From Massalongia carnosa (lineage: Eukaryota), in contig OZ287071.1 of NCBI GenBank assembly GCA_965645245.1, forward strand, positions 1,860,001 to 1,924,000: DNA of 64,000 nt, in the 5' to 3' direction. Shown one piece after another: positions 22,461 to 47,500 of this stretch. The notes under the pieces were generated by a model. It made no database searches, was not told the origin of the DNA, and worked only from the letters and a program-made list of their open reading frames with translations. The position numbers were made by a program, and so were the translations under genes. Position 1 is the first letter of the stretch. The number at the start of each line of letters is the position of its first letter.

Positions 22461-25400
22461 TTCCTGATGATAGTCGCCATCAGGAATGTCGAGAAGTTTC
22501 ATTAAGGGTTGTTAGAGCATCTGTTCTTTCTGTCGATCATCTCGTTCCGGGCAAGCATCTTTTATTTAGATGTAGTATAGCCTCTAATGAAAATCAGTTG
22601 ATGATCGATAACGGAAGTGAAGCTCAATTTCTTCATGAATCCTTTGCGCGCAAAAGAAAACTAGAGACCATTAGACTAAAAAAAAGAGACAGGGTCAGAC
22701 TGGAACTTGGGGATGGAAAAGTCCATCAAATCATTGATAAGGCCGTTATCGTTCCCGTCAGAATCGGAGATCATGAGGAAAAGTTATTCTGCTATCTGGC
22801 CGACATAGGTAATCATACCTTGATCATCGGTGATGGATGGCTGCAGGAGCATAACCCTCACATTGATTGGGTTGAACGCACCATGACGTTCTCCAATCGG
22901 TGCGTCAGTAAGGGATGCGCACCTCGATCTCATTCAGTCTCAAAATTTGAATCCACAATCTTGGAGAAGGAAACGACTGCCTCAGCAAAGAACGAGGCCT
23001 TTGAAAATTTCGATATTCAGTCCCTCACCCCGAAGCGATTTATGAAACTTCTTCGAAGATCGGGTCATCAGACTTACTGTTTCTATCCGAGGGAAAAGCT
23101 CAACAAGAAGTTAGATAGGTACGAGAAGAAGCTTCTGACTGCTTCAAGTATCAACGCAGTCACCAGCGACGATCATGAGAAGTTCATGAAAGACAAAGTC
23201 GAATATACTCTGGAAGAATTGAAAAAACGAGTACCCGAGGCCTATCATGGCGAGATTGAAGTCTTCATGAGGGCTAAGGCAGACGAGTTGGCACCTCATC
23301 GAAAAGAGGATCACGAAATCAATTTGATGCCCGGGATCGAGCCCCCGTTCATCAAGAATTATCGGCCCATGTCCGAACAGGAATTGACCGCGGTAAGAAA
23401 ATATCTAGATGAGCACTTAGCAAAAGGGTTTATTCGTCCGAGCTCGTCAAAGGCGGCCGCGCCGGTACTATTGGTCAGGAAACCAGGCGGGGGTCTTCGC
23501 TTTTGCGTAGATTATCGAGATCTGAATAATATCACGGAGAAAAGTCGATACCCCATTCCATTGATCAGCGAGACATTGGCGAAACTCGCCAAAGCAAAGT
23601 GGTTTACTAAATTGGACGTCATTCATGCATTCAATAGGATGAGGATTAAAGAGGGACAAGAGTGGCTCACGGCGTTCAATACTCGATACGGTCAATTTGA
23701 ATATCTTGTGATGCCCTTCGGACTATGCAACGCTCCATCAACATTTCAGAGCTATATCAATAACTCCCTGCGAGAATACTTAGATTATTTCGTCACCGCC
23801 TATCTGGACGACGTACTGGTGTTCAGTGAAACAGAAACGGAGCACATCGAGCAGGTACTGAAGGTACTTCGTCGTCTGAAAGAAAGAGGACTTCAACTGG
23901 ACATAGACAAGTGTGAATTCTCTGTCTCCGAAGTCAAGTACCTCGGAATGTTCGTAGGGGTGAATGGCGTTAGAATGGACCCAGAAAAGGTGACGGCCAT
24001 ACTAGAATGGAAGACGCCCGCGTCAGTAAAAGAGGTGCAGTCCTTTCTTGGATTCGCTAACTTCTATCGTCGCTTCATTGAGCGATTCTCCGAAAAGGTG
24101 AAGTGTCTGACCGAGCTAACCCGCGGAGAGCAATATGTCACGAAAGGCGGAAAGAGACGCACCAAGTATCAAGACTTCGTGTGGACCACTGAATGTCAGC
24201 AAGCTTTCGAAGACATGAAGATTTCTTTTACCTCTGCGCCGATTCTTGCTCATTACGACCCAAGGCTAGAGACCTGGGTGGAGACAGACGCATCTGACTT
24301 CGTAGTATCGGGGATACTCTCTCAGATGCATGAAGGCGTTCTGAAACCCGTGGCTTATTTCTCGAAGAAGATGAGCCCCGCCGAATGCAATTATGAGATC
24401 TACGATAAAGAACTCCTAGCCATCGTAGAAAGTTTCGTCATCTGGAGACCGGAGCTAGCGGGAGTGGAGCAATCAACAAAGGTCTACTCAGATCATAAGA
24501 ATCTGGAGACCTTCATGACTTTGAAACAACTAAATCGCCGTCAAGTGCGTTGGGCTGAGATGCTGGCGGAATATAATTTTCGCATTATGTATAGACCAGG
24601 CAAGCAAGGGGGCAAACCGGACGCCCTCACCAGAAGAGAGCAAGATCTGCCGATGGACGCGGAGGATGATCGCACCAGATATCAATATCAGGTGCTGCTA
24701 AAAGAAAATCAGCTGGACGATGAAGTGAAACAGGACCTGAAGCTGTACGTGACAACCAGATCCATGGCCAATCGAGAACGGGTTGAAGAGAACATTACTA
24801 CTGACTCATCCGATCAAATCAGGGATGAGGAAGTAGAGGACTTGACGGTAGAGGAGTTCACAATCAATTCGAATGATGATTCGGATGCAGAAAAGCCTGA
24901 TGAATTATTAGAAAATCTTTTAGCGGAGGCATATCAAGAAGACGCAATGATTCAGGAAGTCATGAAGGCTAAGTTGGAAAATCTGAAGAAATTGCCCGAT
25001 AAAATTCTAAGCAACGGGCTGAGACTGGCGATGGGTGACTTGGAAGTCCGTCACGAAAGACTATACTACAAAACACGCCTCTTCATTCCGAATTTCGACA
25101 AGCTGAAGCTGCGTCTTTTATCGGATCATCATAATCCCCCGATGCAAGGACACCCCGGGTATCGAGGCATGTATGCCAAAATGCTGGAGAACTATTTCTG
25201 GATGTCCATGAAGGATGATTGTCGAAGATACGCTACTAACTGCTCTACATGCCGAAGGTCCAAGGCGTACAACGATCAGAAACAGGGACTATTAGCCCCA
25301 CTACCCATACCTCAAAGAAAATGGACAGACTTATCTCTGGACTTTGTAGTCAAACTGCCCAAATGTCACAGACGGGGCCGGACGTACGAAAATATCTTGG

Positions 25401-26527: not shown

Positions 26528-29144
26528 TGTCAGGGTCCTGAGGTCACCTGACATCAGACTAGCATCGATTAGGTAATGTGCCGAGGAACCGACTTTTCAG
26601 GGGTTATATAGAACTCCGCCCGAGTAAAGCTTTTAGACTTCGTCTGAAGATTTTGGTGTAGAACTAGGCTATTGAAATTGAACTCGTTTTATCCCTCACA
26701 AACCGTTACATTAGTCAAATCCTCAACACTCATGCTTTCTTCTTCTTCCAAATCTACGTGTAAACTTGTATCTGCATTCTCCTTCTGATCGTAAAAACGA
26801 ACCATTATCATCGCGGAGAATGTATCCGGATGAAAATTCTTGCGATAATCGTAAAGGGCTCCCGCAACGCTAAAAACGCGCTCACATCCAACGCCAGCGG
26901 CTGGTACAGCAAGGATGTCCCTTGCAACCATACTCATTTGTGGAAATAACGGCTCGAGATCTTTCTACCGTTGTAGAATAGGACCCGAACGATCACGTAT
27001 CGCTATGTATTGTAAATAAGTTGAACACAATGAGAAAAGACCCGATTTATTGTATCAGTTAACCTACCTCGCTGACGATAGCAGTTGAACTCGTCATCTA
27101 GAGCGAGCGGAGTAGCATCATTCGTACTCAGAAGAAGATCCAGATTATTCAAGTCTCGAATGACCGCGACATTACGCCCGCGTACTTGTGAGGTTTGAGA
27201 ATTCTCGTAGATATTAAATTCCGCTTCCAGAGATTACCAATATTGATCTTCCCATCGACTTTCCTATAGGGCGCATCCCAATTGGGACGCTTGAAAATTA
27301 GGTCCTTCTTATTAGAAGATAGCAATACCGCCTTTCTATATAGATAACCTAATGACCCCTGAGTTTTAGAATATTATTGACGTAATTTCGTTGCAGCCGC
27401 CTCGATGCCATTCAATAGCGCACGTTTCCACGATACTCGCTTACGAGATAATCTTGCGCGAGCTTAATCCAGATGAGCTAATAGCTTATTGTAGATCTCG
27501 AACACCTGATGAATGGTCGGTTATTTTGATTGACCAATCATCTTTGTGAAGACGCAGAATAGCTTCGTTAAATCGATAAGATATTCTATCTGTGACCATT
27601 CCACGTCGAGCAATCTCAAATACTCGGCCTCATGTTTATCATGATATCTATTCAGCGCTTGTCGCAACTTGAGCGCTCGAATTAACATGTGACATGTGGA
27701 GTCCCATCGAGTTTTTATATCTTGAAAAAGCTTAAGTACTGTACTGCTGACCGAGTTTCCAGTGCGTCTCTCTTCGTTATTCCATGCTCGTTGAATAACG
27801 TAGAAGTTCTCCTTACTTAAATTGCTACTGTTAATGTAAACAGCTAATGCTTGAACCTAATCGAAATTTAGAACGACTACTACAACGACTACCATAAAAT
27901 AAATCTTGCCTTAGCTAGCGAAAGGGGAACTCTAGGTGTCGGGTTTTCGAAATCCCGTCTATCTTGCTTATCATCCCAGCTAGTTTTCAAATCGGCATTT
28001 TTGGGATTAATGTGAATACACCTAAGTAGCTGTTTCACGGCAAGTTGAATTACATGTGATAAACAAGACACTCGCTGTATCTCATTAGCATCAGTGTGTA
28101 GAAGTGCCAAGGCTCGATTGCTTCGTACCATTCGTCGCAACTCATCTACTATCGTTATGTTATTAGATGCACTGTCCGTGGTTAATGCCAAAACACGATC
28201 TTCAATAAAATGTCTAATTAAAACGCTGTTCAATACTTCAGCAAGTTATATTCCCGTGTGTGAGCCTTCAACGTGTTCGAAGGCAAGAAGCACTTCGTGA
28301 TAATTCCATTTATCGTCAATAAAGTAAGCATTGATTGCCAGATAACCTTAACGATTAAATGACGACCAACAATCCAAAGCCAGAGAGACCTTTAAACTAC
28401 CCCTAGGTAGCCTCTCGAGTAAAAGCGGAATAATCTCTTGACTTCGGGTCATCAAGCGTTTCTTGATTGTCGATGGTGAAGGAAACTGTACATTATCGAG
28501 CAGACAGTTGAACGCTCTTTGCAATTCGACATTGGCGACATTTCGTAACGGTAGCCCAAGAGCAACAATCATACGAAGCAATTGAGGCTTGAAATTATCC
28601 TTTTTTAGTCTACGCCTGTTGAGAGTTAAGGCCTCTTGTCTTTTTACTCCAATCTAATATTGATTAGCAAAGCACGTAATGTGGTAGTCATTGTGGTAGT
28701 CATACTTCGGCACGATATCCAACCTTTAAGGAAAGTTGCTTTATTCCTTTCAATGTCGACGTCTTTTTACAGGACTCGGACTTTAAGTCATTAGTCATGC
28801 AGTTATTTCCGGAGCCCAGTGAGGGATGAGTCAAGACTAGGGAGCATCGCGAGCAGATTATTTTGGGATTACAATCGCCCACAGTGGCGCCTTCCTGAAA
28901 CTCTTTCCATTCCGCCGCCTTTCTTTTGGTCGATTCCCAATCGATCTTCTTCATCGCCTTTCTACTCTTCTCTTCATTAGCAAAATGCCATCTCGTACTT
29001 CGCCACCATTCCATAAACTCGTTGCTCTTCTCGGCCACATATGCGTAGCATCTGGTGGGTTTGCTCATATCTCGAAGATCATATATCTCTGAATCTATTA
29101 TCTGCGAGCTGCTGATTGTTGCGAATGACGAGGATTGTATATAT

Positions 29145-29278
29145 AGGAATGTATATATAGAATGTAGCAGTAGGAATGTAGCAGTAGGAATATAGCAGTA
29201 GGAATGTAGCAGTAGGAATGTAGCAGTAGGAATGTAGCAGTAGGAATGTAGCAGTAGGAATGTAGCAGTAGGAATGTA
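29145..29278. repeat. 14-bp minisatellite (TAGGAATGTAGCAG)n, ~9 copies, in the hAT 5' region
   Basis: Directly visible tandem repeat. Confidence 0.92.
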
Positions 29279-30642
29279 ACTTTATTGACTAGATTATGCT
29301 GCGATAAAGCATTAATAACTACGTTTACGTTCTAAAAACTCAGTCAAATCCAACGCATGCATATATATTCCACCTAAACTAGCCAACCCAACCTAGTCAT
29401 ACTGAACCTAACCATACCCAACCTAACCTAGTTGCCACGCGCGGCTACTGATAACCTGTCTGCTTGCCTATTTGCTTTTAGATATGGCACCGAAGACTCC
29501 ACGCAAGCGTACGCGCAAACCTGCGCGAATTCCAAACCGAACACTCGACAGAATACCCGGGTCGGGTGCCAGAACTGGTGCGACAAGAAAACCAACCACA
29601 AGGAAGAGTATGCCTGGTGGTAAGTAGATGGTATAGTTGAGAATACATAAGATACTAACGCCGATTGCCACGTTGATAAGTCAAATTTATTGATTACCAT
29701 TACTAAGCATGTGATTTGGGTAACCCAATGAAAACCCAACCCGAACCTAACCCAACCCAACAATAACCCAACCCGAACCCAACCCATCATTGGGATAGGT
29801 TCTTTACGTGAGAACCTAACCCAACCTAACCCATTCCGCGGCGTACTGCCAGCCCTCGGGGGTGGACACGAACTGAATAAATCGTTGTTGACTGACTGAT
29901 GGGTCTGTTGACGGTGATCCGGACGACTGCATAGAGTTAGCCTGAGGCGGAATAAACGCACTGCTCGCCCGATATGCCTCAAATATTGAAGACGTGACCA
30001 TTTCAGGGAATGGCAAGGCATCAACCGGTGGTGCAGCTGGTAGGGCTGATGATAACGACGGAGATGCTGACGGTGCTAGTGCTGACGCTGAATGATTAGA
30101 TAGGCCGGGCCAGTCAAATAGAGTAGAAAAATATGAAGCCGGAGGTGCAGGTAGTGTCTAGCGCGTACGTTTTGCACGTCTAGCCCGTGCGTGCCTAGCT
30201 CGGTTTGACTGCCATGGCCCTGACCTACATGGAGGTAGAAACGACCTCACCCGATTGGCTGACACGGTGGCACTAGCTGATGACCGTGCGAGAATTTCTT
30301 TCACTTTTGTCAGCAACTCGGTCAAAATTTCTCGACCCACGATAGTGTGCAGCAGTATTTTCGTGTTATCAGCACCTGCTAGGTGATTTAGGGCTTCCGA
30401 AAGGGGAAGGCTGGATAGTCGACACATAGGAACTATCCAGGTAGAGGCCTGCAAATATAAAAACGCTAGTGCTCGACGAGAGATAGATGATTGAATTAGC
30501 GGCAAAGTAGACAGATATTTATCGACATCTTGTAAGTGGTCAAGTCTAACAGCGTGACTACTAAATAGATTCGTGATGAATGTACGAATAGAGAGTGGTA
30601 AATCAATAAATTGAGATCACATTTACTATCACATTATTATAT

Positions 30643-30764
30643 ATCGGTCCTCCTACTTCTACACCATCGGTCCTCCTCCTTCTACACCATCGGTCCTCCT
30701 CCTTCTACACCATCGGTCCTCCTCCTTCTATACCATCGGTCCTCCTTCTACACCATCGGTCCTC
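30643..30764. repeat. 23-bp tandem repeat ATCGGTCCTCCTCCTTCTACACC, ~5.4 copies
   Basis: Units start at 30643, 30666, 30689, 30712, 30735, 30755. Confidence 0.93.
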
Positions 30765-30941
30765 ACCACGGAGACGCCAAAGGCCTCACCGTGGAGCGAC
30801 CGACAAACATAGATTTGCTCCTATCTTTTCGCATCAAAACAATGCTAATTTAACGCGTTCATACGCGTCGCAGACGTACGTACGGAAAAGGATACGAAGG
30901 CCAACCACCGGGGGGTAGAATGCGCGCGTCCCTGCACCATG

Positions 30942-31101
30942 CTTCTAAGGGTTCAAGTCCCTTCATGCAGTCATCAGCTGGAAGAAGATGTGGACTAAAG
31001 GAGCCGCATCATCCCCCACCCGGGCACAATCGACACGCGTTCTAGCTCCTGAGAGTTCAAGTCTCCCCATGCAGTCATCAGCTGGGATCAACAGAACGCG
31101 T
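30942..31101 (+). ncRNA. Candidate structured RNA motif, copies 1 (30942-30984) and 2 (31047-31087)
   Basis: P1-[NNRG-TTCAAGT-CYNN]-N4-GCAGTCATCAGC-P1' with different but complementary P1 strands in each copy. Confidence 0.7.
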
Positions 31102-32281
31102 AAAGGCACCGGGGCGAATGCTGTCACCTCAAGAAAACTCCATCTCGGAGCAGAATAACAATATCCCATTGAGTTCATTGAATCAACCATCGACGCCTGA
31201 ACAACAAGAAACACAAGTACCGCAACTTTTGATACACTATAACTTTAACAATCAATTGAGCCTCTATTTCTCAGTCATTTGCGCTCCTCCAGAGTTAAAA
31301 CGCTCTCAGATTGAGTGTAGGAGAGCTCTAGCAAAGCTCCAGCAGAGATTTTCTGCTGGTCGCACGCGACCGACGTGATAAAGCGCGCTCTAGAAGTTGG
31401 AAAAAACAACAAATACCAACAACCTCACCAAAAATCGCTCTTTTTTCTTGTTTTCTTCTGTTCTGTTGTCGCATGACCTTCAATTATCACTATAAAAATT
31501 ATCTACAAAAATTATCTACTCTCGCGGGACTGTACAACAACTGTCGCGACGTCAGAGTCTTCTAAAGTTCATTCCTCATTTAAGGTTACGGGAACTTCCG
31601 CAAGCACAAATTTTCATAGCATATTTCACGTATAAATTTTGCACATTCCATTTTCGGCTTTATAGATCTTCGTTGAACGGCCGGTCAACAGATCACTGAA
31701 AAGAAGGGGAAAAACGTCTGGAATAGGATTATACCAAAGGTCCTGTTTCAGATTAATCAGAATAGGAAGTCTCCTATTGTCTTACATTGCATTAAAATTT
31801 ATCTTTATTGAAAAAAGCAAAAAAAAACTTTCATTATTTTCACCTATTGTAATGTCTGGTAAAGGGTTAAATAAGACTTACTGCCTTAGCGAGGAACGGT
31901 CTATTTTAACCCGATTAGGATTTATTTGACGCGTTATAGTCAAATAAATAGGGATAGGAAAGAAAGAGTCATTTGACCAGTAAACAAACAGGTGTAAATT
32001 CTATTCTGACTAGTACGTCCGGGGAAAGTCAGAATAAATTATTTGGTGGCGATAAAAGGGATATTGCAAAGGCAAAAACACTATGCTCAATCGAAGATTT
32101 AACCCGATAGGTCATAGACCAAATCGATTGATACCAACAACTCCTCCCCCAGGCCCCCCTCCACAACATCTATGGGTCCCCCCGAGTACTCCCCCGTGCC
32201 CCCCCCCGAACCGACTCCCCTACGCCATCTTCGGTAGCGATAATTGGGAGCAACCCCCTAACCGTAGAATCCACGGAGGCC

Positions 32282-33742
32282 ATGGACCAAACGCGAGAAT
32301 TTTCGTCCGCACCGTCCACACCCACCCCAAAAACGAAACCTTTTGTCGCGCCATCTGGTGAATTCAGTACCAATCTGCCCATGCCATCATTGAATTCTGA
32401 TATTCGACTGAGTCCACCAATTAAACGCAACAAAAGACGAACATTTGACGAACATTCGATTGAGAGTCAAGAAGTCATCAATCGATCAAAATCGATTCAA
32501 CTATTGAATACGGCAAAAAATGCATTATTAGAGTCATTCGTAATAGATCAAAACCACGAAACGGCTATGGTCATCGATCACGTCAATTCTCTACTGGCAA
32601 AGAAATCGATCAAGCCAAAAGCAACGTTAGAAATGATGGATTGGAAATTGAATAGGGTGCTAGAACAAACTAGCCAAATTCCAGAAACAAAGAGACAATC
32701 GGTGCATCCTATACAGACAAAATCGAAGGGAAATTCAAATGGAAATTCGAATTTGACTAAAAACGTCAACCCAGAAATTCGGAGCGAAACCGCCGGAGTC
32801 CCAGGGCCGCAGGTCAACGATACAGCTAGAACATGGAGCCAAATGCTCGGAAAAGCGACTGTCAATTCCGAAAATTGGACTACCGTTCCTCGATCCAAAA
32901 AAACAAACAAGAACAACAACAATAATTCGAATGCGAACAAATTCGATAATACTGACGATTTCAAGGCGATCAAATCTCGACGATTGATAATCACACCGAA
33001 AGCTCAAATCGGCGATATCGATTCACTGTTGCTTCGAAACCAAATCAATTCGCTTTTTAAAGACGCGAAATTGACTATCGTTGTTAACACGGTCGAAAAG
33101 TCCAAAACGGGTCAAAACATCGTTCTGACTACTAGTCCTGATAACACTGCTGAAGATTTATTGAACAATAAATCAATATGGGAGCATTTATTCGACCCAC
33201 GAACAGTTCGAAAGGACGAATCGTGGTTCAAAGTCGTCGCACACGGTGTAAATATTGCAACATTTGATGAAAACATGCAATATTTGCAAGACGAAATTCA
33301 AAAGTTCAATTCGAACATGCAATTATGCGATGTTCCCAGATGGCTAGCACGTGATCGTCATAACAAGATCAAATCATCCGTTGTTTTGACATTCAATGAT
33401 CGAAATATGGCCTTGAACGCGTTAAAAGGAGTCAATATCGCGGGCCGACATTGTGACACGGAAATATTTACCTCCGTTCGTCCAAACACACAATGCATTA
33501 ATTGTCAAAAATTTGGACACAAGCATTATCAATGCAAAAGTCAAGCGAAATGCAGCATATGTGCGCAAAACCATGAAACACGCAATCATGAATGCACAAC
33601 ATGCAAGTCAAAAATTGCTTGTGCACACGCCGTCGTCAAATGCGCGAATTGCAACAAGAATCATCAATCCAATGATGAAAATTGTGAAATGGTTATATCG
33701 TTAAATGTTCGAAAATCGACTGACGAATTAGCCGCTTTGTAA
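32282..33742 (+). CDS. LINE ORF1 (Gag-like, three C-terminal Cys/His knuckles)
   Basis: CINCQKFGHKHYQC, CSICAQNHETRNHEC, CANCNKNH..C. Confidence 0.92.
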   Translation: MDQTREFSSAPSTPTPKTKPFVAPSGEFSTNLPMPSLNSDIRLSPPIKRNKRRTFDEHSIESQEVINRSKSIQLLNTAKNALLESFVIDQNHETAMVIDHVNSLLAKKSIKPKATLEMMDWKLNRVLEQTSQIPETKRQSVHPIQTKSKGNSNGNSNLTKNVNPEIRSETAGVPGPQVNDTARTWSQMLGKATVNSENWTTVPRSKKTNKNNNNNSNANKFDNTDDFKAIKSRRLIITPKAQIGDIDSLLLRNQINSLFKDAKLTIVVNTVEKSKTGQNIVLTTSPDNTAEDLLNNKSIWEHLFDPRTVRKDESWFKVVAHGVNIATFDENMQYLQDEIQKFNSNMQLCDVPRWLARDRHNKIKSSVVLTFNDRNMALNALKGVNIAGRHCDTEIFTSVRPNTQCINCQKFGHKHYQCKSQAKCSICAQNHETRNHECTTCKSKIACAHAVVKCANCNKNHQSNDENCEMVISLNVRKSTDELAAL

Positions 33743-36700
33743 TGGCAGGACAGCATTCGTTGACAAACATCGAAAATACACAAAATGTTAAATTTATTCA
33801 ACATAATTGTGCAAAGTCAACGAATGCAATGATATCGTGTTTGGAATATGCTTTATCAAATCAAATTGATATTGTTTTGTTTCAGGAACCATGGACACGA
33901 GATCAAAAAACAATATCACATCCGTCATTTACATGTATTATGCCAAAAATAGCGACTTATCGCTCGAGAGTAGCTATATTTGTCACAAATGGCAATTCCA
34001 AACTGCAATGCACGCCTAGAACGGATCTTATTGACGATTCCGATATGCAAATTATTGAAATTACACTTGATGAAGTTCGAAAAGTGAAGATTTTCAATAT
34101 TTATAACGAAAAAAGTCAAAGTGATCGAGAAACATACACGATCGATCGACTTTTAATCCAATTACAACCAAAATCAACTGATCAATTCGTCATCTGTGGA
34201 GATTTCAATGCACATCATAACTGGTGGAATTCGAAAATTCAACAAGCAATTCGATCAGAAAATCTTGTCAAATGGTTGAAATTAAACAGGTGTAGCTTGA
34301 TAAACACACCTGACTTATGTACATACTACGCCCATTCTGGAAGTTCTTCATCTGTTATTGATTTAACTTTTGCAAATTCTAAAATCGAAAATGCAATTAC
34401 AAATTGGTCAATCGATGAAAACGCAGTCATAGGTTCTGATCATGAAGTCATCCGATTTGAACTAATCGCATCTTTCAAAAACTTGACGTCACATGCAACC
34501 TCATTATCGAATAAATACAATTGCAATAAAGCTGATTGGAATAAATTCGCGAAGTATCTAGACGAAAATTCAACCATCTACGAATCACAAGTTCAAAGTT
34601 TATTGAATAATCATCAATTCGACGAATCAGCGATATATTTGCAAAACGTTATCAAAAACGCGGCTGAAATGTTTATTCCGAAAACGAAAATTTGTGCAAA
34701 ATCGAAAAATTGGTGGTCGCATGATTTAACTGAACTTCGAAAAACCATGTGCAGACATCGTCGAGAATGGAAGAATTATCCGTCCGATTTTAGTCATCGG
34801 ACGTTTAAACATAGTCGAATCGAGTATTTTCATGCAATTCGAAAAGCAAAACAACAAACATGGTTGACTTTTCTTGAAAATGCAGCAAATAAAGATGTAT
34901 TTACCGCGTATAAATACACTACACCGCGAATATTCGAAAAAATACCGCCGATTCTACATGAAAACAAGCTAAATGTTCAGTTTGATGACAAATGCGATGC
35001 ATTTGTGTCAGCAATGTATACAAAAAACCCATTTATTGACGATAATGAGGAAGATTTATCAAATCAAGACAGCGTAAATGATGATAATTGGCCAGATTTG
35101 ACCGAAAACGAGTTGAAAAATGCGATTAGTTTATTTAATCCGAAGAAAGCATGTGGACCTGATGCAATCAATTTTACAATTGTTCAAAAATCGTTTCAAT
35201 CGTTGAAAAACGTGTTTTTCATGATTTATTCGAAATTCATTCGAATCGGTTATCACCCGTTATGCTGGCGGACAGGACTCGGTGCAGTTCTGAAAAAACC
35301 TAATAAATCAGACTATTCGTTTCCAAAATCATATCGAATTATCACATTATTAAATTGTCTTGGTAAAATTGCTGAGAAAATCGTTGCAAATCGACTAGCC
35401 TACTTCGGCGAAAATTCGAATTTACTCGATATCGAACAGATGGGCGGACGCAAAAATCATTCTGCAATTGACGCAGTAATGAACGTTGTTCATGATATTG
35501 AAATTGCAAATAGAAATAAAAACGTCTTATCATGTTTATTACTCGATGTCAAAGGCGCATTTGACTTTGTCTCGATTAATCAACTGCTAAATGTTATGAA
35601 AAAGCTGAAATTATCTCGCATAATAATTCAATGGGTCAAGCATTTCTTGACAAAGCGATCGATCAATTTGATATTTGATGAAAATTTAAGCAAAACATAT
35701 TATGTCGAATCAGGAATTCCACAAGGCTCACCAATCTCGCCTATTCTATTTCTGATTTACATTCGTCACTTGTTTCCGAAAATACGAATGAAATTCAATG
35801 CACATTCTCCCAGTTTTATTGACGATGTTGCAATATATGTCGAAAATAAAACTGCAAAACAGAATTGCAATGAAATCGAAATCATAGTCAAAACGGCCTT
35901 TGATTGGGCCGCATCGAATAATGTCAAATTTGATGACGATAAATCCGAGCTGATTCACTTCGAAAAGACAAGAAATGTATCGAAAGACACATTGGAATTA
36001 CCAAACGGGACAGTACTAGAACCGAAAAATGTAGTCAAATGGTTGGGCGTCTGGTTAGACCGAAAACTAAATTTCAAAAAACACGTCGAAACGCGGATCT
36101 CTTCTGCGAATCGATCGTTTTTTGCAATTCAGAATTTGATGAAATCCGAATGGGGTCTGAAACCGACCGCATGCAGACAGCTCTATATGTCATGCATTAT
36201 TCCTATTTCGGACTACGGCTCAGAAATTTGGTATAATGGTCAAAAGAAATATGAAAAACTATTTCAGAACCTACAAAATCGAATGATTCGAAAGATTTTA
36301 GGAACTTTCAAAACTACACCTGTTCAGGCGATGGAAATTGAATCACATGTTTTACCAGTTAAACTTCGATTATTAATGAAAAATCAAAAATACGCAATTC
36401 GATTATTGAAGATTGCCGAAAATAACCCTATTTGTCAAAGAATTCCAAACACATATTCGATAAAATTCGAAAATATCGGTTTTGACACAAGTTTATGGAA
36501 CAACAAATATGCCGAATGGAACGAAGACGAAAAACAAACAAATAAACGACATCCTAGTCAGCTTATTCGCGTTCTTCATTCCGTTTCCGATATAGTTCAC
36601 AAAACTGATGAATTTGAACAATCAAATCATTTTATTAAACCTTGGAAATCGCATTGCAAAATCAAATTTCAAATCGAAAATACAAAGGAATCTGCTAAAT

Positions 36701-37755
36701 CAAGTTATTATTCGACCTTATCCAAAATTAAATCAATGAACTCCGATAAATCCCGAGTTTTACTTTATACAGATGGATCGAAAATCGAATTTGCAACGTC
36801 TGCAGTCACATTTGCGCCAATTATAAGGAATTAGAGTAATATTATCAATAATTTTAATCGATTTATCGAAAAAGATTGTCTGATCAAGTATCATACGATT
36901 TCGAAAAGCTGGAAATTAAGCAAAAAGTCAAGCATTAAAAATGCCGAACTGCATGCGATTTTACAAGCAATGAAATGGGTCTATAAATTGTCGAATACTA
37001 ATATTTTATCGAACTTAGAAAAAACGATTCGGATTTTTTCTGATAGTATAAACGCGATAAACGAAATTCAGAACTTGACAAATCATATTTTCGCCAGACA
37101 AATTCGAAAGCTCGCAAAAATCTTATTTGAAAGCAATTTTCAGGTGATTTTGCAATGGGTTCCGAGTCATTCAAATATTACCGAAAACGAAATTGCAGAC
37201 AAAATAGCAAAGACGGGCCATAATCAAATCCTAGTCGAGTCCTCGGCGATAACATTTGATTATGTAAAAGATCAAATAAATCAAAATATGCTAACCACAT
37301 GGACGAATCAATGGCAACAATGCAAATCAAAAGGCAAATACAACGAGAAATTCGAAATGAAACCTGGCATATCGAGATTTTATTATTTATCAAACAACTG
37401 TTCCAAATTGATATTTGCTACTATTATGCAATTAAAATTCGGACACGGCTATTTTCGATCTTATTTAAAGCGATTGAAAGATTATAATTCGTCAAAATGC
37501 ACAAATCGATGCAATCAACGACAAACGCCAGAACACTTGTTATTGAATTGCATTCACTATTTCGATGAAATTCAAAACATGAAACAAAATATCGATACTA
37601 CTATCAACTTGAATATGTTGTTTAATACAAAAATCGGAAATGACATTTTGATTAAATTCATTGTCAATAACAAAATCGCGACAAGAAAATGGATACTAGG
37701 TCAGCTTGATGACGAGATTTTCGAAACTGGAGGTTGGGGAGAGATCGAACAGTAA
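33742..37755 (+). pseudogene. LINE ORF2 APE endonuclease-RT-RNase H-CCHC (1337 codons) with a single TGG>TAG stop at 36832
   Basis: QEPW, GDFNAHH, GSDH (APE); GIPQGSPISPILF, FIDD (RT); YTDGSK, AEL, SDS, QWVPSH (RNase H); QTPEHLLLNC. Sister copies read TGG at the stop position. Confidence 0.93.
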
Positions 37756-38033
37756 AATCAGAAACGATTTATGCTGATACATTCACGAACTTACAAAGAC
37801 AAATTTTAAAATCGATATTCTTCGATTACTATAGGTTGTTACTAACACGGAGTAAAAATGGGGAAAAATTGACAATACATAGATGGGTTATAAAGGGTTG
37901 ATTTATTTGTAACAAAGAAACATATCCTAAAATAGTTTAGTGTCATAACCTTAGGTTGAATACACTTAATGAATAAATAAATAAAAAAAAACAATATCCC
38001 ATTTAATAGGCCCGGCCTGTTAAATAAAATCGA

Positions 38034-38203
38034 GGAAAACATAGAGTCACAAAACACATAGTCATCAATCACACGTTGTACAAAGCACACAGTTACAAAG
38101 CACACAGTCACAAACACACAGTCAAAAAACACACAGTCACAAAACACACAGTCACAAAACACACAGTCACAAAACACACAGTCACAAAAAACACAATCAC
38201 AAA
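38034..38203. repeat. 15-bp tandem repeat (ACAAAACACACAGTC)n, ~11 copies
   Basis: Directly visible; lies in the LINE B leader. Confidence 0.9.
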
Positions 38204-38282
38204 TCAATAACACGTCCCTGTGAAGGGGGTTCTGCGGGGGCTCGTTAAGACAGATCTTCACCCCGTTAATATCGGCGTACAT

Positions 38283-38527
38283 ATTTTTAGAGGTTCAAGT
38301 CCTTTCTAGCAGTCATCAGCTGAAAATGATGCATTTTGACACGGGCATGGTGTGGATTTGACACGGGTAGACCTCGATGGATCACAAAACGAATGAAAAG
38401 AGTTCAGCGGAACTTCGTTAATATTGTTCTCGAAGACCTCGTTAATAAGATTTTCATAGACCTCGTTAACAACGTTCAGTCATACTCTTAAAGGTTCAAG
38501 TCCTTTCATGCAGTCATCGGCTGAGAG
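38283..38527 (+). ncRNA. Candidate structured RNA motif, copies 3 (38283-38327) and 4 (38485-38527)
   Basis: Same core and spacing as copies 1-2; P1 = ATTTTTA/TGAAAAT and CTCTTA/TGAGAG. Confidence 0.7.
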
Positions 38528-40910
38528 CTAAAGACGTACGACACGGGTCAGCTATGTCTGTCACACGGGTCTCCTTCGTCTACAACACGGAGCCCTCCGG
38601 CTGAAAGAAATAAAACATATAGACACATAGTGTAGGGTCACACCCTACACGATACAAGGGATTTGGGTTATGAAAACCATCCGATTGATGGCTACCGTGA
38701 GCAACACGGCCCGAACCGGAGTCGTACCGGGGATGGTGGAGGCAACCTAGTCATCAAATAGGACACCCTTGGGACAAGAAGAGGGCAATATACGAGGAAC
38801 CCGTTAATTGATAACAGTCTAGGCCCTGAGCTAATAGACGAATTTCAAACGAGCACCCCTCCGAGTTGTCCTCGACTCGTTTTGGTTAGTAGGGACGGAA
38901 AATCGATACTATACTGCCTGGTCAGGAGCATAGTGGTCGAAATCCCTGCGAGACATGGTCGGTTCATAAACGGGAGACCTTTATGAATAACGCGAAGTGG
39001 GCGTAAAAAACCCGTGAGGCGTGGTATGCAATGGCGGCCACCGTACGGAGACCGTCTGCATAGCCCGAGAGGACAGTATGCGCATGTCGGTGTATATAGA
39101 GCAGGGAATGTTTATCTCGCTCGTAACGAGACCCCGTCGGTTCGCCGGCGCATGGGCTACGGCTAGACTCGCCCTTGATGTATGCTTAAGGAGTAAACTG
39201 GGTTTGACCTGGGCGAAAGGGACGTCGTTCACCCCAATCGTAGAATTCATCAATAATCTTGGGCCGAAAAACGCACCAGTGAGATGAACGAAAACTGGGA
39301 TAGAGACTTCACGAAGGAGAGAGATGTCAACTCTATTTTATCATTCTTAGCCCTCCCCAAATGGAATCTCCGGGGCTCTCGTCAGTAGGACTTATAGAAA
39401 AATCGCCTGTACTTGACGAGCCTATGGATCAATCACATGAATATTCGTCCGCCCCGACTACGCCGACCCCAAAAGCAACCAAATTCCCATCTGGACAATT
39501 TACTACCAATCTACCCATGCCATCGTTAAATTCTAATATAGAATTAAGAAACGTAACAAACGAAAAACATTCGACGAACGAGTAGAGGAAAGCCAAGAAG
39601 CAATCAATCGAGCACAATCGATTGGATTACTCAAAACGGCTAAAACCGCGTTATTGAAGTCATTTGTCTTAGATCAAAATCCAGAAACAGCAATAGTCAT
39701 TGATAATGTCAATTCCTTATTGACAAAAAAATCAATTAATATCAAAACAACACTAGACATGATGAATTGGAAATTGGACAAGGTAATTGATCAGACTAGT
39801 AATCGAACCTCAGAAACAACGCGAAAATCGACTCGGGTTCAACAAGTCAATATGACTGAAAATCCAAATAAAGTCGTCAACACGAACGCACGAAAGGAAA
39901 CCGCCGGGGTTACGAGTACAAAGGTCAATAACACGCCTCCATCCTGGAGTCAAATGCTTGGAAAAGCAACTGCGAATTCCGAAAATTGGACCACTGTTTC
40001 CAGATCGAAAAATTCGAGTCAAACCTCGAACAAACTCGACAAAACCGACGAATTAAATGCAATCAAACTCATACGACTGATAATTACACCAAAAATTCAA
40101 ATCGGCGATATCGAATCATTGAAACTTCGAGATCAAATCAACGCGCAATTCAGCAACGCGAAGTTAGATATCGTAATCAACACGGTCGAAAAATCGAAAA
40201 CCGGTCAGAATATCGTTCTCACTACTAGTTCGAAAAACACTGCTGCAGAATTGTTGGAAAACAAATCTATATGGGAACATATGTTCGATGCACAAAGAAT
40301 TCGAAAAGACGAATCCTGGTTTAAAGTGATCGCACATGGAGTAAATATTGCAACGTTTGATCAAAATATGCAATTTTTGCAAAATGAAATCCAGAAATTC
40401 AACCTTAACATGGAATTGTGCGATTTATCCAGATGGCTAGCGCGAGATCGCGAAAACAAAGTCAATTCTTCGGTCGTTTTGACTTTTAACGATCGAAATC
40501 AGGCCTTAAACGCGTTAAAAGGCGTAAATATCGCGGGAAAACACTGTGACACGGAAATATTTACATCCGTTCGTCCGAATACACAATGTATTAATTGTCA
40601 AAAATTCGGACACAAGCATTATCAGTGTCGAAACAAATCAAAATGCAATATTTGTGCACAAAATCATGAAACACGTAATCATGAATGCATAACATGCAAA
40701 TCGAAAACTGCGTGTGCACACGTTGTTGTGAAATGTGCAAACTGCAATAAAAATCATCAATCAAATGATGAACATTGTGAAATGTTTACTGCATTAAATC
40801 CACGAAAATCGGCTGACGAATTATCCGCCTTATAATGGCAGGACAGCATTCGTTGGCAAATATAGAAAATACTCACAATGTCAAATTTATTCAACACAAC
40901 TGTGGAAGGT

Positions 40911-41560
40911 TTTTTTATTTTTATTTTTTATTCATTAAGTGTATTCAACCTAAGGTTATGACACTAAACTATTTTAAGATATGTTTCTATATTACAAATA
41001 AATCAACCCTTTATAACCCATCTATGTATTGTCAATTTTTCCCCATTTTTACTCCGTGTTAGTAACAACCTATAGTAATCGAAGAATATCGATTTTAAAA
41101 TTTGTCTTTGTAAGTTCGTGAATGTTTCAGCATAAATCGTTTCTGATTTTACTGTTCGATCTCTCCCCAACCTCCAGTTTCGAAAATCTCGTCATCAAGC
41201 TGACCTAGTATCCATTTTCTTGTCGCGATTTTGTTATTGACAATGAATTTAATCAAAATGTCATTTCCGATTTTTGTATTAAACAACATATTCAAGTTGA
41301 TGGTAGTATCGATATTTTGTTTCATGTTTTGAATTTCATCGAAATAGTGAATGCAATTCAATAACAAGTGTTCTGGCGTTTGTCGTTGATTGCATCGATT
41401 TGTGCATTTTGACGAATTATAATCTTTGAATCGCTGTAAATAAGATCGAAAATAGCCGCATCCGAATTTTAATTGCATAATAGTAGCAAATATCAATTTG
41501 GAACAGTTGTTTGATAAATAATAAAATCTCGATATGCCAGGTTTCATTTCGAATTTCTCG
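40911..41560 (-). mobile_element. 5'-truncated LINE copy (650 bp) inserted into LINE B ORF2
   Basis: 13-bp TSD AACTGTGGAAGGT (40898-40910, 41561-41573); T-rich tail on the left; ORF2 C-terminus 41149-41547. Confidence 0.95.
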
Positions 41561-44500
41561 AACTGTGGAAGGTCAACGAATGCAATGATTTCGTGTTTGG
41601 AATATGCTTTATCAAATCAAATCGATATTGTTTTGTTTCAGGAACCATGGACACGAGATCAAAAAACAATATCACATCCGTCATTTACATGCATTATGCC
41701 GAAAACAGCGACTTATCGCTCGAGAGTAGCTATATTTGTCACAAAATGCAATCCCAAACTGCAATGCACGCCTAGAACGGATCTGATTGACGATTCCGAT
41801 ATGCAAATTATTGAAATTACAATTGATGAAATTCGAAAAGTGCAGATTTTCAATATTTATAACGAAAAAAGTCAAAATGATCGAGAAACATACACGATCG
41901 ATCGACTTTTAATCAAATATCAACCTACATCAACTAATCAATTCATCATATGTGGAGATTTCAATGCACATCATAACTGGTGGAATTCGAAAATTCAACA
42001 CGCAATTCGATCAGAAAATTTAGTCAAATGGTTGAAAATAAACAAATGTAGTTTGATAAACACACCTGATTTATGCACATTCTACGCCCATTCTGGAAGT
42101 TCATCATCTGTTATTGATTTAACATTTGCAAATTCCAAAATCGAAAATGCAATTACAAACTGGGCAATCGATGAAAACGCAGTCACAGGTTCAGATCATG
42201 AAGTTATCCGATTTGAACTAATCGCATCTTTCAAGAATTTGACGTCACATGCAACCGCATTATCGAATAAATACAATTGTAATAAAGCCGATTGGAATAA
42301 ATTCGCGAAGTTTCTAGACGAAAATTCAATCAACTACGAATCAAAAGTTCAAAGTTTATTGAATAATCATCAATTCGACGAATCAGCGATACATTTGCAA
42401 AAAATTATCAAAAACGCGGCTGAAATGTTTATTCCGAAAACAAAAATATGTGCAAAATCGAAAAATTGGTGGTCGCAAGATTTAACCGAACTTCGAAAAA
42501 TCATGTGCAGGCATCGTCGAGAATGGAAGAATTATCCGTCCGATTTTAGTCATCGGACGTTTAAACATAGTCGAATTGAGTATTTTCATGCAATTCGAAA
42601 AGCAAAACAACAAACCTGGTTGACTTTTCTAGAAAATCCAGCGAATAAAGACGTGTTTACCGCGTATAAATATACTAAACCGCGCATATTCGAAAAAATA
42701 CCGCCGATTCTACATGAAAATAAGCTTAATGTTCAGTTTGATGACAAATGCGATGCGTTTGTGTCAGCAATGTACACAAAAAAACCATTTATAGACGATA
42801 ATGTCGAAGATTTACCAAATCAAGACAGCGAAAATGATGATAATTGGCCAGATTTGACCGAAAACGAGCTGCAAAATGCGATTAATTTATTTAATCCGAA
42901 GAAAGCATGTGGACCTGATGCAATCAATTTTACAATTGTTCAAAAATCGTTTCAATCGTTAAAAAACGTGTTTTTCATGATTTATTCGAAATTCATTCGA
43001 ATCGGTTATCACCCGTTATGCTGGCGAACAGGACTCGGTGCAGTTCTGAAAAAACTTAATAAATCAGACTATTCGCTACCAAAATCATATCGAATTATCA
43101 CATCACTAAATTGTCTTGGTAAAATTGCTGAGAAAATCGTTGCAAATCGACTAGCCTACTTCGGCGAAAATTCGAATTTACTAGATATCGAACAGATGGG
43201 CGGACGCAAAAATCATTCTGCAATTGACGCAGTAATGAACGTCGTTCATGATATCGAAATTGCGAATCGAAATAAAAGCGTTTTATCCTGTTTATTACTC
43301 GATGTCAAAGGCGCATTTGACTTTTTCTCGATTAATCAACTGCTAAATGTCATGAAAAAGCTGAAATTATCTCGCATATTAATTCAATGGGTCAAGCATT
43401 TCATGATAAAACGATCGATCAATTTGATATTCGATGAAAACAAAAGCAAAACATATTATGTCGAATCAGGAATTCCACAAGGTTCACCAATCTCGCCTAT
43501 TCGATTTCTGATTTACATTCGTCACTTGTTTCCTCATTGAACTTAAACATTGGATCAAGCCCACCAATCAAACGAAATAAAAGACGCACATTTGACGAAC
43601 ATTTGAGAGATAGCCAAGAAGCGATCAATCGGGCAAATTCAATTGAGCTTCTAAAGTCGGCCAAAAAAGCATTATTGCAATCATTTGGACTGGACCAAAA
43701 TCCACAAACGGCTATCGTAATTGACAACGTTAATTCGTTGATTTCGAAAAAATCAATCAATTTACAAACATCCTTAGATATGATTAACTATAAAATGGGC
43801 ATAGTACTTGATCAAACTAGTCATCTTTCCTCAAAAACGTCACAACAACAAACGACTCCACTACAGAATGGTCCAAAAATCCAAAAACCTGTTGTTAAAT
43901 TGAACGAAAATTCAATTATCGAAAATCAGACCATTCGCAAAGGAGCTACCGGGGTCTCTGGTAACAATGTTAGCACAACCGGTACATGGAGTCAAATGCT
44001 TGGAAAAGCAACCGAAAACTCCGAAAATTGGACTACTATTCAAAGGAAAAGTTCGAATAATAATTCGAACAAAGTCGATCGATTTGATGCAATCAAGGCC
44101 AGACGACTCGTGATTTCACCGAAAAATCCTGACGCTCAAATCGACTCTATGAAGTTGCGTGATCAAATTAACGCGCTATTAAAAAACGCAAATTTAAACA
44201 TCATCGTCAATACTGTTGAAAAGTCCAAAACCGGTCAGAATATAGTTCTCACCACTAGCCCTGACAACAATGCCGAAGAATTGTTGAAAAATAAATCTTC
44301 ATGGGAACACATTTTCGAATCACAAAGAATTCGAAAAGACGAATCCTGGTTTAAAGTCATAGCACACGGAGTAAATATCTCGTTATTCGATAATAACATG
44401 CAATATTTGCAAACCGAAATCGAAAAATACAATTCGAATATGCAACTATGCGATTTACCAAGATGGCTTGCTCGGGATCGTCAAAACAAAGTCACGTCGT

Positions 44501-47500
44501 CGGTAGTTTTGACTTTCAATAATCAAAATCAAGCGTCAAACGCGTTAAGAGGCGTGAATATCGCGGGTAGACATTGTGACACGGAAATATTTGCTTCCGT
44601 TCGTCCAAACACGCAATGTATTAATTGTCAGAAATTTGGACATAAGCATTATCAATGCAAAAGTCCGGCAAAATGCAATATATGCGCACAAAGTCATGAA
44701 ACGCATAATCATGAATGCACAACATGCAAGTCTAAAATCGCATGCGCACATGCAATTCTGAAATGCGTCAATTGCAACAAAAATCATCAATCGAACGATA
44801 TAGGTTGCGAAATGTTTATATCGCTAAATCCTAGAAAATCGAATGATGAATTAATGCTTGGTTAATGGCGGGACAACATTCGTTGACAAATATCGAAAAT
44901 ACACAAAATGTCAAATTTATTCAACATAATTGTGCAAAGTCAACGAATGCAATGATTTCGTGTCTGGAATATGCAGTATTAAATCGTGTTGATATTGTTT
45001 ATTTCAGGAACCATGGACGCGAGATCAAAAAACAATTTCCCATCCGTCATTCACATGTATTATGCCGAAAATAGCGACTTATCGGCCGAGAGTAGCTATA
45101 TTCGTTACAAAATGCAATCCAAAATTGCAATGAACGCCTAGAACGGATCTTATAAACGATACTGATCTGCAAATTATCGAAATTACAATTGATGAAGTTC
45201 GAAAAGTGCAGATCTTTAACCTTTACAATGAAAAAAGTCTAAACGATCGAGAAACATATACAATCGATCGACTTTTAGTTAAATATCAACCTATATCAAC
45301 TGATCAATTTGTCATATGTGGAGATTTCAATGCACATCATAGCTGGTGGAATTCGAAGATTCAAAATGCAATTCGATCAGAAAATCTAGTCAAATGGTTA
45401 AAATTAAACAAATGTAGTTTGATAAATACGCCTGATCTATATACATTTTTTGCTCATTCAGGAAACTCTTCATATATTATTGATTTAACATTTGCAAATT
45501 CTAAAATCGAAAACGCAATTACAAATTGGTCAATCGATGAAAACGCAGTCACGGGTTCAGATCATGAAGTTATTCGATTTGAACTTATCGCGTCTTTCAA
45601 GAACTTGACGTCACACGCAACCGCATTATCGAATAAATACAACTGCAATAAAGCCGATTGGGATAAATTCGCGAAGTTTCTAGACGAAAATGCAGTAAAC
45701 TACGAGTCCCAAATACATAGTCTATTGAACAATTATCAATTTGATGAATCAGCGTTATATTTGCAAAACGTTATCAAAAACGCGGCTGAAATGTTTATTC
45801 CGAAGACAAAAATATGCGCAAAATCGAAAAATTGGTGGTCGCAAGATTTATCCGGACTTCGAAAAATCATGTGTAGACATCGTCCAGAATGGAAGAATAA
45901 TCCGTCCTATTTTAGTCATCAAACATTTAGACATAGTCGAATCGAGTACTTTCATGCAATTCGAAAAGCGAAACAGCAAACTTGGTTGGCTTTCCTCGAA
46001 AACGCAGCGAATAAAGACGTATTTACAGCTTATAAATACACTAAACCGCGCATGTTCGAAAAAATACCACCTATTCAATATGAAAATAAGTTAAATGTTC
46101 AATTCGATCACAAATGCGATGCGTTTGTGTCAGCAATGTACACAAAAAACCCGTTCACGGATGATAATATTGAAGATTTAACGAATCAAGACAGCGAAAA
46201 TGACAACAATTGGCCGAATTTAACCGAAAATGAATTGCAAAATGCGATTAGTTTGTTTAATCCAAAGAAATCATGTGGACCTGATGCAATCAATTTCACA
46301 ATAATTCAAAAATCGTTTCAACAATTGAAAAACGTGTTTTTTACTATTTATTCTAAGTTTATACAAATCGGTTATCACCCGTTATGTTGGCGAACAGGAC
46401 TCGGTGCTGTTTTAAAAAAACCTAATAAACCAGACTACTCGCTGCCAAAATCATATCGAATTATTACCTTACTGAATTGTCTTGGTAAAATTGCGGAGAA
46501 AATAGTTGCTAATCGACTAGCCTACCTCGGCGAAAATTCGAGCTTGTTAGATACTGAACAAATGGGCGGACGGAAAAATCATTCTGCAATCGATGCGGTA
46601 ATGAACGTCGTTCATGATATCGAAATCGCAAACCGAAACAAAAACGTTTTATCATGTCTATTACTCGATGTCAAAGGAGCATTTGACTTTGTTTCGATTA
46701 ATCAATTGCTAAATGTTATGAAAAAGCTGCATTTATCTCGCATAGTTATTCAATGGGTAAAGCATTTTATGACAAAACGATCGATCAATTTGATATTCGA
46801 TGAACACAAAAGCAAAACGTACTATATCGAATCTGGAATTCCACAATGTTCACCTATTTCGCCAATTCTATTTCTGATTTATATTCGTTACTTATTTCCG
46901 AAAATACGAATGAAATTCAATGCTCATTCACCTAGCTTTATAGACGATGTTGCAATATATGTCGAAAATAAAACTGCCACACAGAATTGCAAAGAAATCG
47001 AAATTATCGTCAAAACAGCTTTTGAATGGGCCGCAACGAATAATGTCAAATTTGATGACGACAAATCTGAGTTGATTCATTTCGAAAAGTCAAGAAATGC
47101 ATCAAAAGACAAAGTGCAATTACCAAACGGGACAATACTAGAACCGAAAAAATTTGTAAAATGGTTAGGAGTCTGGTTAGACCGAAAACTAAATTACAAA
47201 AAACACGTCGAAACGCGAATTGCTTCTGCAAATCGATCGTTTTTCGCAATTCAAAATTTGATGAAATCTGAATAGGGACTAAAGCCAACTGCATGCAGAC
47301 AGCTCTATCTGTCATGTATTATTCCTATTTCGGACTATGGCTCAAATATCTGGTATAACGGTCAAAAGAAATATGAAAAGCTATTTCAGAATCTGCAAAA
47401 TCGAATGATTCGAAAGATTTTAGGCACATTCAAAACCACGCCTGTTCAGGCGATGGAAATTGAATCGCATATTTTACCAGCCAAGCTACGATTGTTGATG

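Follow-up and report, generated by a model that had tools for sequence, protein, structure and literature searches.

The analysed stretch, referred to below as the window, comprised 64,000 nucleotides (nt) of Massalongia carnosa (assembly GCA_965645245.1, contig OZ287071.1, positions 1,860,001 to 1,924,000, forward strand, counted here from 1). Three long interspersed nuclear elements (LINEs A, B and C) and a non-coding leader were found in it, with a 43-nt RNA motif occurring four times in the leader (Table 1). The pattern GTTCAAGTC-N7-GCAGTCATCRGC matched the window four times, always on the + strand, with 0 to 3 mismatches allowed. The chance expectation was 0.00, as none of 100 shuffles gave a match. 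The four copies with an invariant loop, noticed in a preliminary description of this DNA, were thus confirmed. Their cores aligned without gaps, and so the 31-nt spacing between the closing strands, given there as exact, is indeed exact. The closing strands had been described as different but complementary, and in the four copies alone 6 of the 13 predicted pairs showed a compensatory double change.

Each copy is predicted to form a three-way junction, with the order P1 (4 base pairs, bp), a single U, P2 (5 bp, 7-nt loop), 4 nt, P3 (4 bp, 5-nt loop) and the second strand of P1. In copy 1, these parts are P1 30942-45/30981-84, U 30946, P2 30947-51/30959-63 with the loop UUCAAGU, J 30964-67 and P3 30968-71/30977-80. 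Copy 2 has a single A.C mismatch in P2, and its P1 can be extended outward by 9 bp (ACGCGTTCT/AGAACGCGT, read from the sequence). Copy 3 is preceded by CCGTTAATA, 13 nt upstream, and followed by two ACACGGG boxes. Copy 4 carries an A-to-G change in the P3 loop; three YCGTTAAYA boxes precede it, and two ACACGGG boxes follow. A covariance model of the motif (R1) recovered only the four copies from the window, the next match having an E value of 0.92. This weak match (23129-23177, 8.5 bits) reads TTCAAGT ... GCAGTCACCAGC and sits in a 1372-amino-acid reading frame of another element; it is probably a chance hit.

Table 1 Features of the motif-bearing leader and of the neighbouring LINEs, in window positions. 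ORF, open reading frame.
Feature	Position	Strand	Evidence or description
Motif copy 1	30942..30984	+	pattern match; model R1, 70.3 bits
Motif copy 2	31046..31088	+	pattern match; model R1, 61.8 bits
Target-site duplication of LINE A, left	31157..31170	.	AACAATATCCCATT, 14-mer identical to the right copy
LINE A, full length	31171..37989	+	contig comparison, target-site duplication, ORFs
Target-site duplication of LINE A, right	37990..38003	.	AACAATATCCCATT, perfect over 14 bp
15-nt tandem repeats (AAACACACAGTCACA)n in the head	38022..38216	+	number of repeat units varies among contigs from other runs
Motif copy 3	38284..38326	+	pattern match; model R1, 64.1 bits
Motif copy 4	38485..38527	+	pattern match; model R1, 67.2 bits
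Conserved head block	38619..38779	+	hairpin GTGTAGGGTCACACCCTACAC, then AAGGGATTTGGGTTATGAAAACC; 70-77% identity to many loci
Large conserved structured domain	38881..39261	+	matches 34 loci, 61-75% identity
3'-terminal hairpin domain	39295..39350	+	CUGGGA 39295-39300 pairs with UCUUAG 39345-39350
Head/body joint	39351..39353	+	CCC common to both sides
LINE B body	39354..43540	+	ORF1 start equivalent 39424, ORF1 to 40835, ORF2 broken (41534-43540)
LINE C	43540-47884		directly after the broken ORF2 of LINE B; 5'-truncated within ORF1 (repeat offsets)

LINE A lies between copies 2 and 3. It has a 5' untranslated region (UTR) of 1.1 kb (31171-32281), ORF1 (32282-33742), ORF2 with APE and RT domains (33742-36834), an RNase H region (36970-37755) and an A-rich 3' end. 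In the four other runs compared (37900-39600), many contigs read from ...GAAAACTCCATCTCGGAGCAGAAT, equal to window 31132-31156, straight into 37990, and head copies lacking the LINE A insertion occur in other runs. These read-through contigs and the 14-bp duplication at its borders indicate that LINE A is a later insertion and that all four motif copies belong to one leader, as the preliminary description had proposed. Without LINE A, the copies span about 750 nt. The same two observations rule out an arrangement of two copies in each of two LINE leaders, considered since the two regions align only at the motif. LINE C follows LINE B, and the remainder of LINE B is missing after it.

Copies beyond the window were searched for in metagenome contigs. 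An exact-pattern scan gave 71 instances (46 distinct) at 46 loci, of which 45 are real. The remaining one, L029, is a chance hit in a bacterial diaminopimelate epimerase (dapF) region, and its removal leaves 45 distinct instances. Prokaryote genomes scanned with the exact pattern gave 0 matches. With model R1, 128 copies, 73 of them distinct, were found in the metagenome loci. Most heads, as we call the leaders from here on, contained three or four junctions (3-4 copies, for example, in L008, L009, L010, L044, L033 and L006). Both the number of copies and their spacing (51 to 400 nt) varied. In one group of loci, the 183-nt family, the motif is part of a tandem 183-nt unit present 1-3 times per head.

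The predicted fold was tested by comparison of these copies. In an ungapped alignment of 34 distinct instances (A4, from which model R1 was built), 94.8% of the cells were paired, compared with 82.7% after shuffling (the observed value was reached by 0 of 500 shuffles) and with 39-58% when the partners were slid against each other. Double-sided changes were seen in 8 of the 13 pairs, including 4/4 in P1 and 4/5 in P2, and P2 pairs were kept in 95.9%. The 73 distinct copies (alignment A5) gave 94.5% paired cells and double changes in 10 of 13 pairs, values to be read with the bias towards the structure that comes from fitting A5 to model R1. The purine at position -4 covaries with position 12 (G-C 15, A-U 14 and G-U 4 of n=34), and therefore belongs to P2 and not to P1. 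The P2 length of 3 bp in the preliminary description has to be corrected to 5 bp. The third hairpin suggested there lies one register away from the proposed GCAG/CRGC: its strands are CAGU and GCUG, and its loop is CAUCA. Evidence for P3 was first obtained from 38 distinct copies outside the exact-pattern selection. Among the 73 distinct copies, its outer pair was C-G in 56, G-C in 2 and U-A in 2, and its inner U.G pair became U-A in 2 and C-G in 1. Covariation in all three helices strongly supports a fold kept by evolution.

Single-copy folding energies gave z-scores of -0.30 to +0.35 on the + strand, and neither strand folded better than shuffles; support for the fold must therefore come from the comparison. 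In many copies (copy 2, L012 and the 183-nt family, read from the sequence), P1 continues for 10-16 bp with an internal loop. The loop UUCAAGU is invariant in alignment A4, and was retained in 31 of the 38 distinct copies outside the exact-pattern selection, although model R1 does favour it. The junction strands are variable (J1/2 a single U, J2/3 N-N-N-G), whereas both loops are near-invariant. This contrast suggests that the loops are read by a partner, rather than that the junction forms a catalytic core.

The strand under selection was inferred from the non-Watson-Crick pairs. At the level of DNA, transitions at G-C pairs are expected to yield as many G.U as A.C. The 46 distinct instances contained, in P1 and P2, 306 Watson-Crick pairs, 36 G.U, 7 A.C and 19 other mismatches, so that 92.9% were paired when read as the + strand and 85.1% as the - strand. 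The G.U excess indicates that pairing was selected in + strand, LINE-sense RNA, and not in the complementary DNA strand or in duplex DNA. A structured RNA on the LINE-sense strand, with G-U pairs working on the + strand only, was exactly what the preliminary description had put forward.

In the window, the leader is a non-coding head built of modules; it measures at least 1.6 kb, and its 3' end is fixed. Besides the motif, many loci have in common the box upstream of copy 3, the conserved head block and the large conserved domain; the motif is among the few head parts conserved between families. Head length was roughly 1.3-1.7 kb, with the junctions, typically 3-4, in the 5' half. Between 38263 and 38569, 4/4 YCGTTAAYA and 4/6 ACACGGG sites of the 64-kb window cluster at copies 3 and 4, all on the + strand, and both boxes also flank the motif in other families. 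The repeating unit is thus box, junction, boxes. A 23-nt tandem array (30643-30777) lies just upstream of copy 1, and a 14-nt array at 29132-29299.

The large domain is predicted to fold into 11 helices with 77 pairs, 33 of them with compensatory changes; 95.5% of cells were paired, compared with 87.7% after shuffling and 32-48% after sliding. Apart from one chance sub-threshold hit, no Rfam family was found in it. It could be a ribozyme, an element resembling an internal ribosome entry site (IRES) or a protein-binding domain. Across heads, the final six bases are complementary to a CYARGG some 50 nt before them (CUGGGA, 45 nt upstream, in the window). This terminal helix was proposed by hand and then counted, RNAalifold on the head 3' end not having predicted it; it was 91.5% paired in 10 sequences, with double changes in 2 of 6 pairs. 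In the window and in L018, a C-G pair has become U-A, the G-to-A change at the head end being compensated by C-to-U.

Both ends of the head could be delimited in the 183-nt family. Its 14 copies have a common 5' end at L044:1093 (1130 in two) and a common 3' end at L044:2772-2775, and differ beyond both. The head begins about 400 nt upstream of the first motif copy, and its first part (L044 1093-1420) duplicates the large domain in partial, degenerate form. Downstream of the common 3' end, the copies start at staggered points in one LINE sequence (pair offsets of 146, 26, 54 and 447 nt). In this family (L002-L044), TA, TAG and TAA are abundant, and most differences between copies are C-to-T or G-to-A, a picture that resembles repeat-induced point mutation in an ascomycete.

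In all families compared, ...TTRG closes the head; of 19 distinct joints, 16 have a C immediately after it. Matches to the ORF2 of the window were found by tblastn in 12 of the 46 loci, 260-1200 nt beyond the last junction. They began at residues 111, 320, 491, 502, 635, 692, 721, 723, 795 and 844. These ORF2 proteins are only about 27-38% identical to that of the window, and its named relatives come from fungi (Pleurotus, Fusarium) or an aphid. In the window, the joint (39350|39351) lies 73 nt before the ORF1 start equivalent of LINE B, and two contigs of run X2 diverge exactly there, one on each side.

The head is therefore separate from the LINE's own 5' UTR, and is joined to full-length or variably 5'-truncated bodies. 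LINE A is of the same LINE family, yet has a 5' UTR of its own in which model R1 found no motif. Neither the motif nor the large domain was found in LINE A or LINE C; as LINE C is truncated, not every truncated copy receives a head. The motif does lie upstream of a LINE body, as the term LINE leader in the preliminary description implied; what that term missed is that the head is a module of its own, joined to LINE bodies cut at different points.

The closest likeness among known RNAs was to the T-arm of transfer RNA (tRNA). P2 has its geometry, a 5-bp stem with a closing G-C pair and a 7-nt loop, UUCAAGU, that fits UUCRANN. In addition, GUUCAAGUC fits GUUCNANNC, the recognition consensus of Pus4/TRUB1. 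The topology is the mirror image of tRNA, however: the T-arm of the motif comes after the 5' strand, and not the 3' strand, of its closing stem. The motif also has no cloverleaf, D-arm, anticodon arm or CCA end. The Rfam 15 families searched included tRNA, hammerhead, hepatitis delta virus (HDV), twister, twister-sister, pistol, hatchet, exonuclease-resistant RNA (xrRNA) and signal recognition particle (SRP) RNA. None reached the gathering threshold anywhere in the window, in line with the earlier remark that the motif fits no known ribozyme or RNA consensus. Around copies 1 and 2 (30700-31300), nothing was found at E up to 10. In 38000-39450, the sole match was a Streptococcus small RNA, SpR10, which at 24.8 bits against a threshold of 50 was dismissed as chance. 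Five metagenome loci gave a single faint match, a T-arm fragment of transfer-messenger RNA (E 0.39).

Other comparisons were made by hand and rejected. The large domain has the same helix order as the SRP Alu domain, but no sequence likeness or loop-loop complementarity was found. Lariat-capping ribozymes have CAU at the triplet corresponding to the one before GCUUAAGG in the large domain; this conserved triplet varies (UAU, CAU, UGU), and no consistent mapping to an HDV-like or lariat-capping fold was obtained by eye against consensus features. Pseudoknots between loop and flank were discarded as well, since a downstream GAUG is present in copies 1 and 3 only, and the ACUUG of the upstream box varies without compensation. 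Our literature search found no description of a T-loop or structured RNA in the leaders of LINEs or fungal retrotransposons. Retrotransposon motifs are unmentioned in the passages found of Li and Breaker 2017 and Gao et al. 2021.

Several known elements resemble the architecture of head and body. In mouse, L1 carries tandem promoter monomers at its 5' end. These units, variable in number, are comparable to the 183-nt units of the head, which differ in containing a covarying RNA fold. In U6-L1 chimeric retrocopies, LINE copies cut at the 5' end carry a foreign RNA, much as at the head joints; here, the acceptor is a long dedicated structured RNA and not an abundant small nuclear RNA. U6 chimeras are also cited in the available passages on MINE, an element of Magnaporthe grisea (PMC2104539). 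According to these passages, MINE consists of a full-length 1.1-kb non-coding WEIRD RNA, function unknown, fused to a LINE called MGL. The MGL copies are cut at 28 different sites, target-site duplications flank the chimeras, and the joins are explained by the LINE reverse transcriptase switching templates. The chimeras are transcribed, starting from the WEIRD end.

In the loci studied here, LINE bodies with variable 5' truncations were likewise found behind a non-coding module whose 3' end is fixed. The likeness is one of architecture. The MGL switch sites have the consensus GCC|A/T, including TTGGCC and TGGGCC (PMC2104539), which resemble the head end TTRG|C(C). This likeness may reflect microhomology with the 3' end of the acceptor. 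MINE also differs from the present elements. The passages on it describe no RNA structure for WEIRD, and report neither a solo gene nor relatives in other genomes (PMC2104539), whereas the present head has covarying folds and occurs at 45 metagenome loci. In our search, no later work on WEIRD structure was found.

In structural terms, the motif is a new class of RNA; the chimeric retroelement that contains it is of a known kind, though an unexplained one. As to its role, the reading that we favour is that of a repeated cis-acting RNA handle on the sense transcript, not a ribozyme; we hold the chances for and against it to be evenly balanced. Its arms are P1, a closing stem with a covarying 4-bp core, P2, an exact mimic of the T-arm, and P3, the short hairpin CAGU-CAUCA-GCUG. 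The repeated junctions would serve as recognition handles, their two invariant loops being read by a protein. Candidate readers are a host factor that binds T-arms, or the LINE's own ribonucleoprotein. Such binding would keep the head RNA stable and near the reverse transcriptase, which could then switch template onto the 3' end of the head (...UURG, then C). The copies, their fold and strand, their repetition, the head architecture and the variable joints were shown by the sequence comparisons; we infer the binding role and the template switch.

Several points weigh against the proposed handle. Besides the folding energies and the bias of alignment A5, the scan pattern fixed both loops, and loop invariance in the 46 selected instances (45 without L029) is thus partly by construction. 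The covariation of P3 comes from few copies. The sequence GGTTCAAGTCC, exact in three of the four window copies, is a good match to a B-box, and the boxes that flank the motif could be DNA sites. The likeness to WEIRD is architectural, drawn by analogy. Finally, the evidence on the junction and the head comes from DNA sequence.

A wider proposal can be built on the handle. The head would be a new class of structured non-coding RNA that includes WEIRD, and would spread as LINE cDNAs gain it at their 5' end by programmed template switching onto a base-paired 3' end, ...UURGC(C). The T-arm junctions, as mimics of tRNA, would mark this RNA for selection as acceptor, either by the LINE reverse transcriptase or by a host factor in its ribonucleoprotein that binds tRNA. 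They are likened here to the tRNA-like 3' tags used by the reverse transcriptase of the Neurospora Mauriceville retroplasmid. Each copy, even a truncated one, would gain a promoter-bearing head. We regard this proposal as doubtful.

Alternatively, the junction could be part of one large folded head RNA, in which the T-loops dock on downstream domains and the whole head acts as a ribozyme, an IRES-like element or a ribonucleoprotein scaffold. T-loops dock in this manner in tRNA, RNase P and ribosomal RNA. In L044, L008, L010, L001 and L040, the large domain is preceded by one motif copy at a distance of about 50-65 nt, and both the 11 helices with their 33 compensatory pairs and the conserved helix at the head terminus would fit a single fold. 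The varying number and spacing of the copies do not, and the window copy adjoining the large domain is degenerate. Moreover, L012 retains one junction while ~1 kb of the head between this junction and the large-domain end, most of the large domain included, is gone (L012 1333-1801 compared with L008). We regard a single large fold as unlikely.

The motif could also act as DNA, either as a TFIIIC-binding B-box of the tRNA type, raised as an alternative in the preliminary description, or as an internal promoter or enhancer repeated like the monomers of mouse L1, the RNA fold being secondary. The consensus of the TFIIIC B-box is GGTTCGANTCC, and GGTTCAAGTCC fits the B-box of tRNA genes. The variable number of tandem 183-nt units, the short conserved boxes beside the copies and the transcription of WEIRD-MGL chimeras from the WEIRD end (PMC2104539) agree with such a role. 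As a sequence match the B-box is good, but it leaves unexplained the covariation of P1 and P3, which lie outside any B-box. Within it, positions 52 and 62 change together from G-C to A-U, and the excess of G.U over A.C (36 to 7) is not predicted by DNA binding. RNA polymerase III terminates at runs of T, and the T5 run in the head (38284-38288) would stop it. No A-box or tRNA was detected. A DNA element with a secondary RNA fold is, in our view, quite unlikely; the loop sequence and the boxes around the motif could nevertheless act as DNA alongside their role in RNA.

Protection against decay was a further alternative, the motif being an xrRNA-like element that stalls 5'-3' exonucleases or stabilises the RNA, and so shields the downstream head and LINE. 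The 3' UTRs of flaviviruses contain duplicated xrRNA elements, and a small, tandem three-way junction upstream of the part that must survive would be in keeping with them, as would the conserved ACACGGG after the junction. However, no pseudoknot partner was found by eye for either loop, and no similarity to the xrRNA families of Rfam was detected. We judge this alternative improbable.

A new small self-cleaving ribozyme, trimming the 5' end of the element RNA, had been among the functions first suggested. HDV-like ribozymes trim the element RNA of R2, RTE and L1Tc in this way, and are likewise structured RNAs on the 5' side of a non-LTR element. The motif has the size of a small ribozyme, a three-way shape and a position on the 5' side of a LINE. 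The HDV fold is, however, a nested double pseudoknot, too long for 43 nt, and the conserved bases of the motif lie in hairpin loops and not in the junction. No Rfam ribozyme family was matched at E up to 10. A hammerhead has a CUGANGA ... GAAA core, three helices and a cleavage triplet. The minus strand reads CUGAUGA in three of the four window copies and CCGAUGA in copy 4; a minus-strand hammerhead was rejected, as no helix II-GAAA-helix III order could be drawn and the strand signal is +. Heads with 3-4 internal copies were copied intact at different genomic places, with a 5' end about 400 nt upstream of the first copy, which argues against efficient cleavage at each copy. Self-cleavage is thus unlikely, and as an account of the whole motif a new ribozyme seems highly improbable. 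Fungal HDV-variant ribozymes, widespread in fungi, also have variable neighbouring genes, as the motif does (PMC5640933).

Least probable is a decaying, now functionless relic of a tRNA-derived short interspersed nuclear element (SINE) head: the T-arm likeness and the SINE-like layout of head and LINE-derived tail are outweighed by compensatory changes across families with ORF2 proteins so distant from that of the window, by the conservation of the motif between heads that have little else in common, and by the lack of any cloverleaf, ARAGORN having found 0 tRNA genes in the window and 0 in all 46 loci. Of the two matches which the preliminary description had said would remove the novelty, an Rfam family and a tRNA-derived SINE head, neither emerged from the Rfam and ARAGORN searches.

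The junction is a well-supported RNA structural motif absent from Rfam, and in samples of soil, peat and lichen it is widespread among fungal DNA. Truncation normally costs a LINE copy its 5' end, whereas the truncated copies seen here have a complete head again, structured and non-coding. If this head and WEIRD are related, a conserved architecture, made up of repeated T-arm junctions, two domains that covary and a 3' end that is paired, would be gained for an RNA described in 2005-2007 as "of unknown function". With defined mutants, three processes would then become testable: the choice of template-switch acceptors by the LINE reverse transcriptase, the exchange of LINE 5' modules, and the birth of SINE-like elements.

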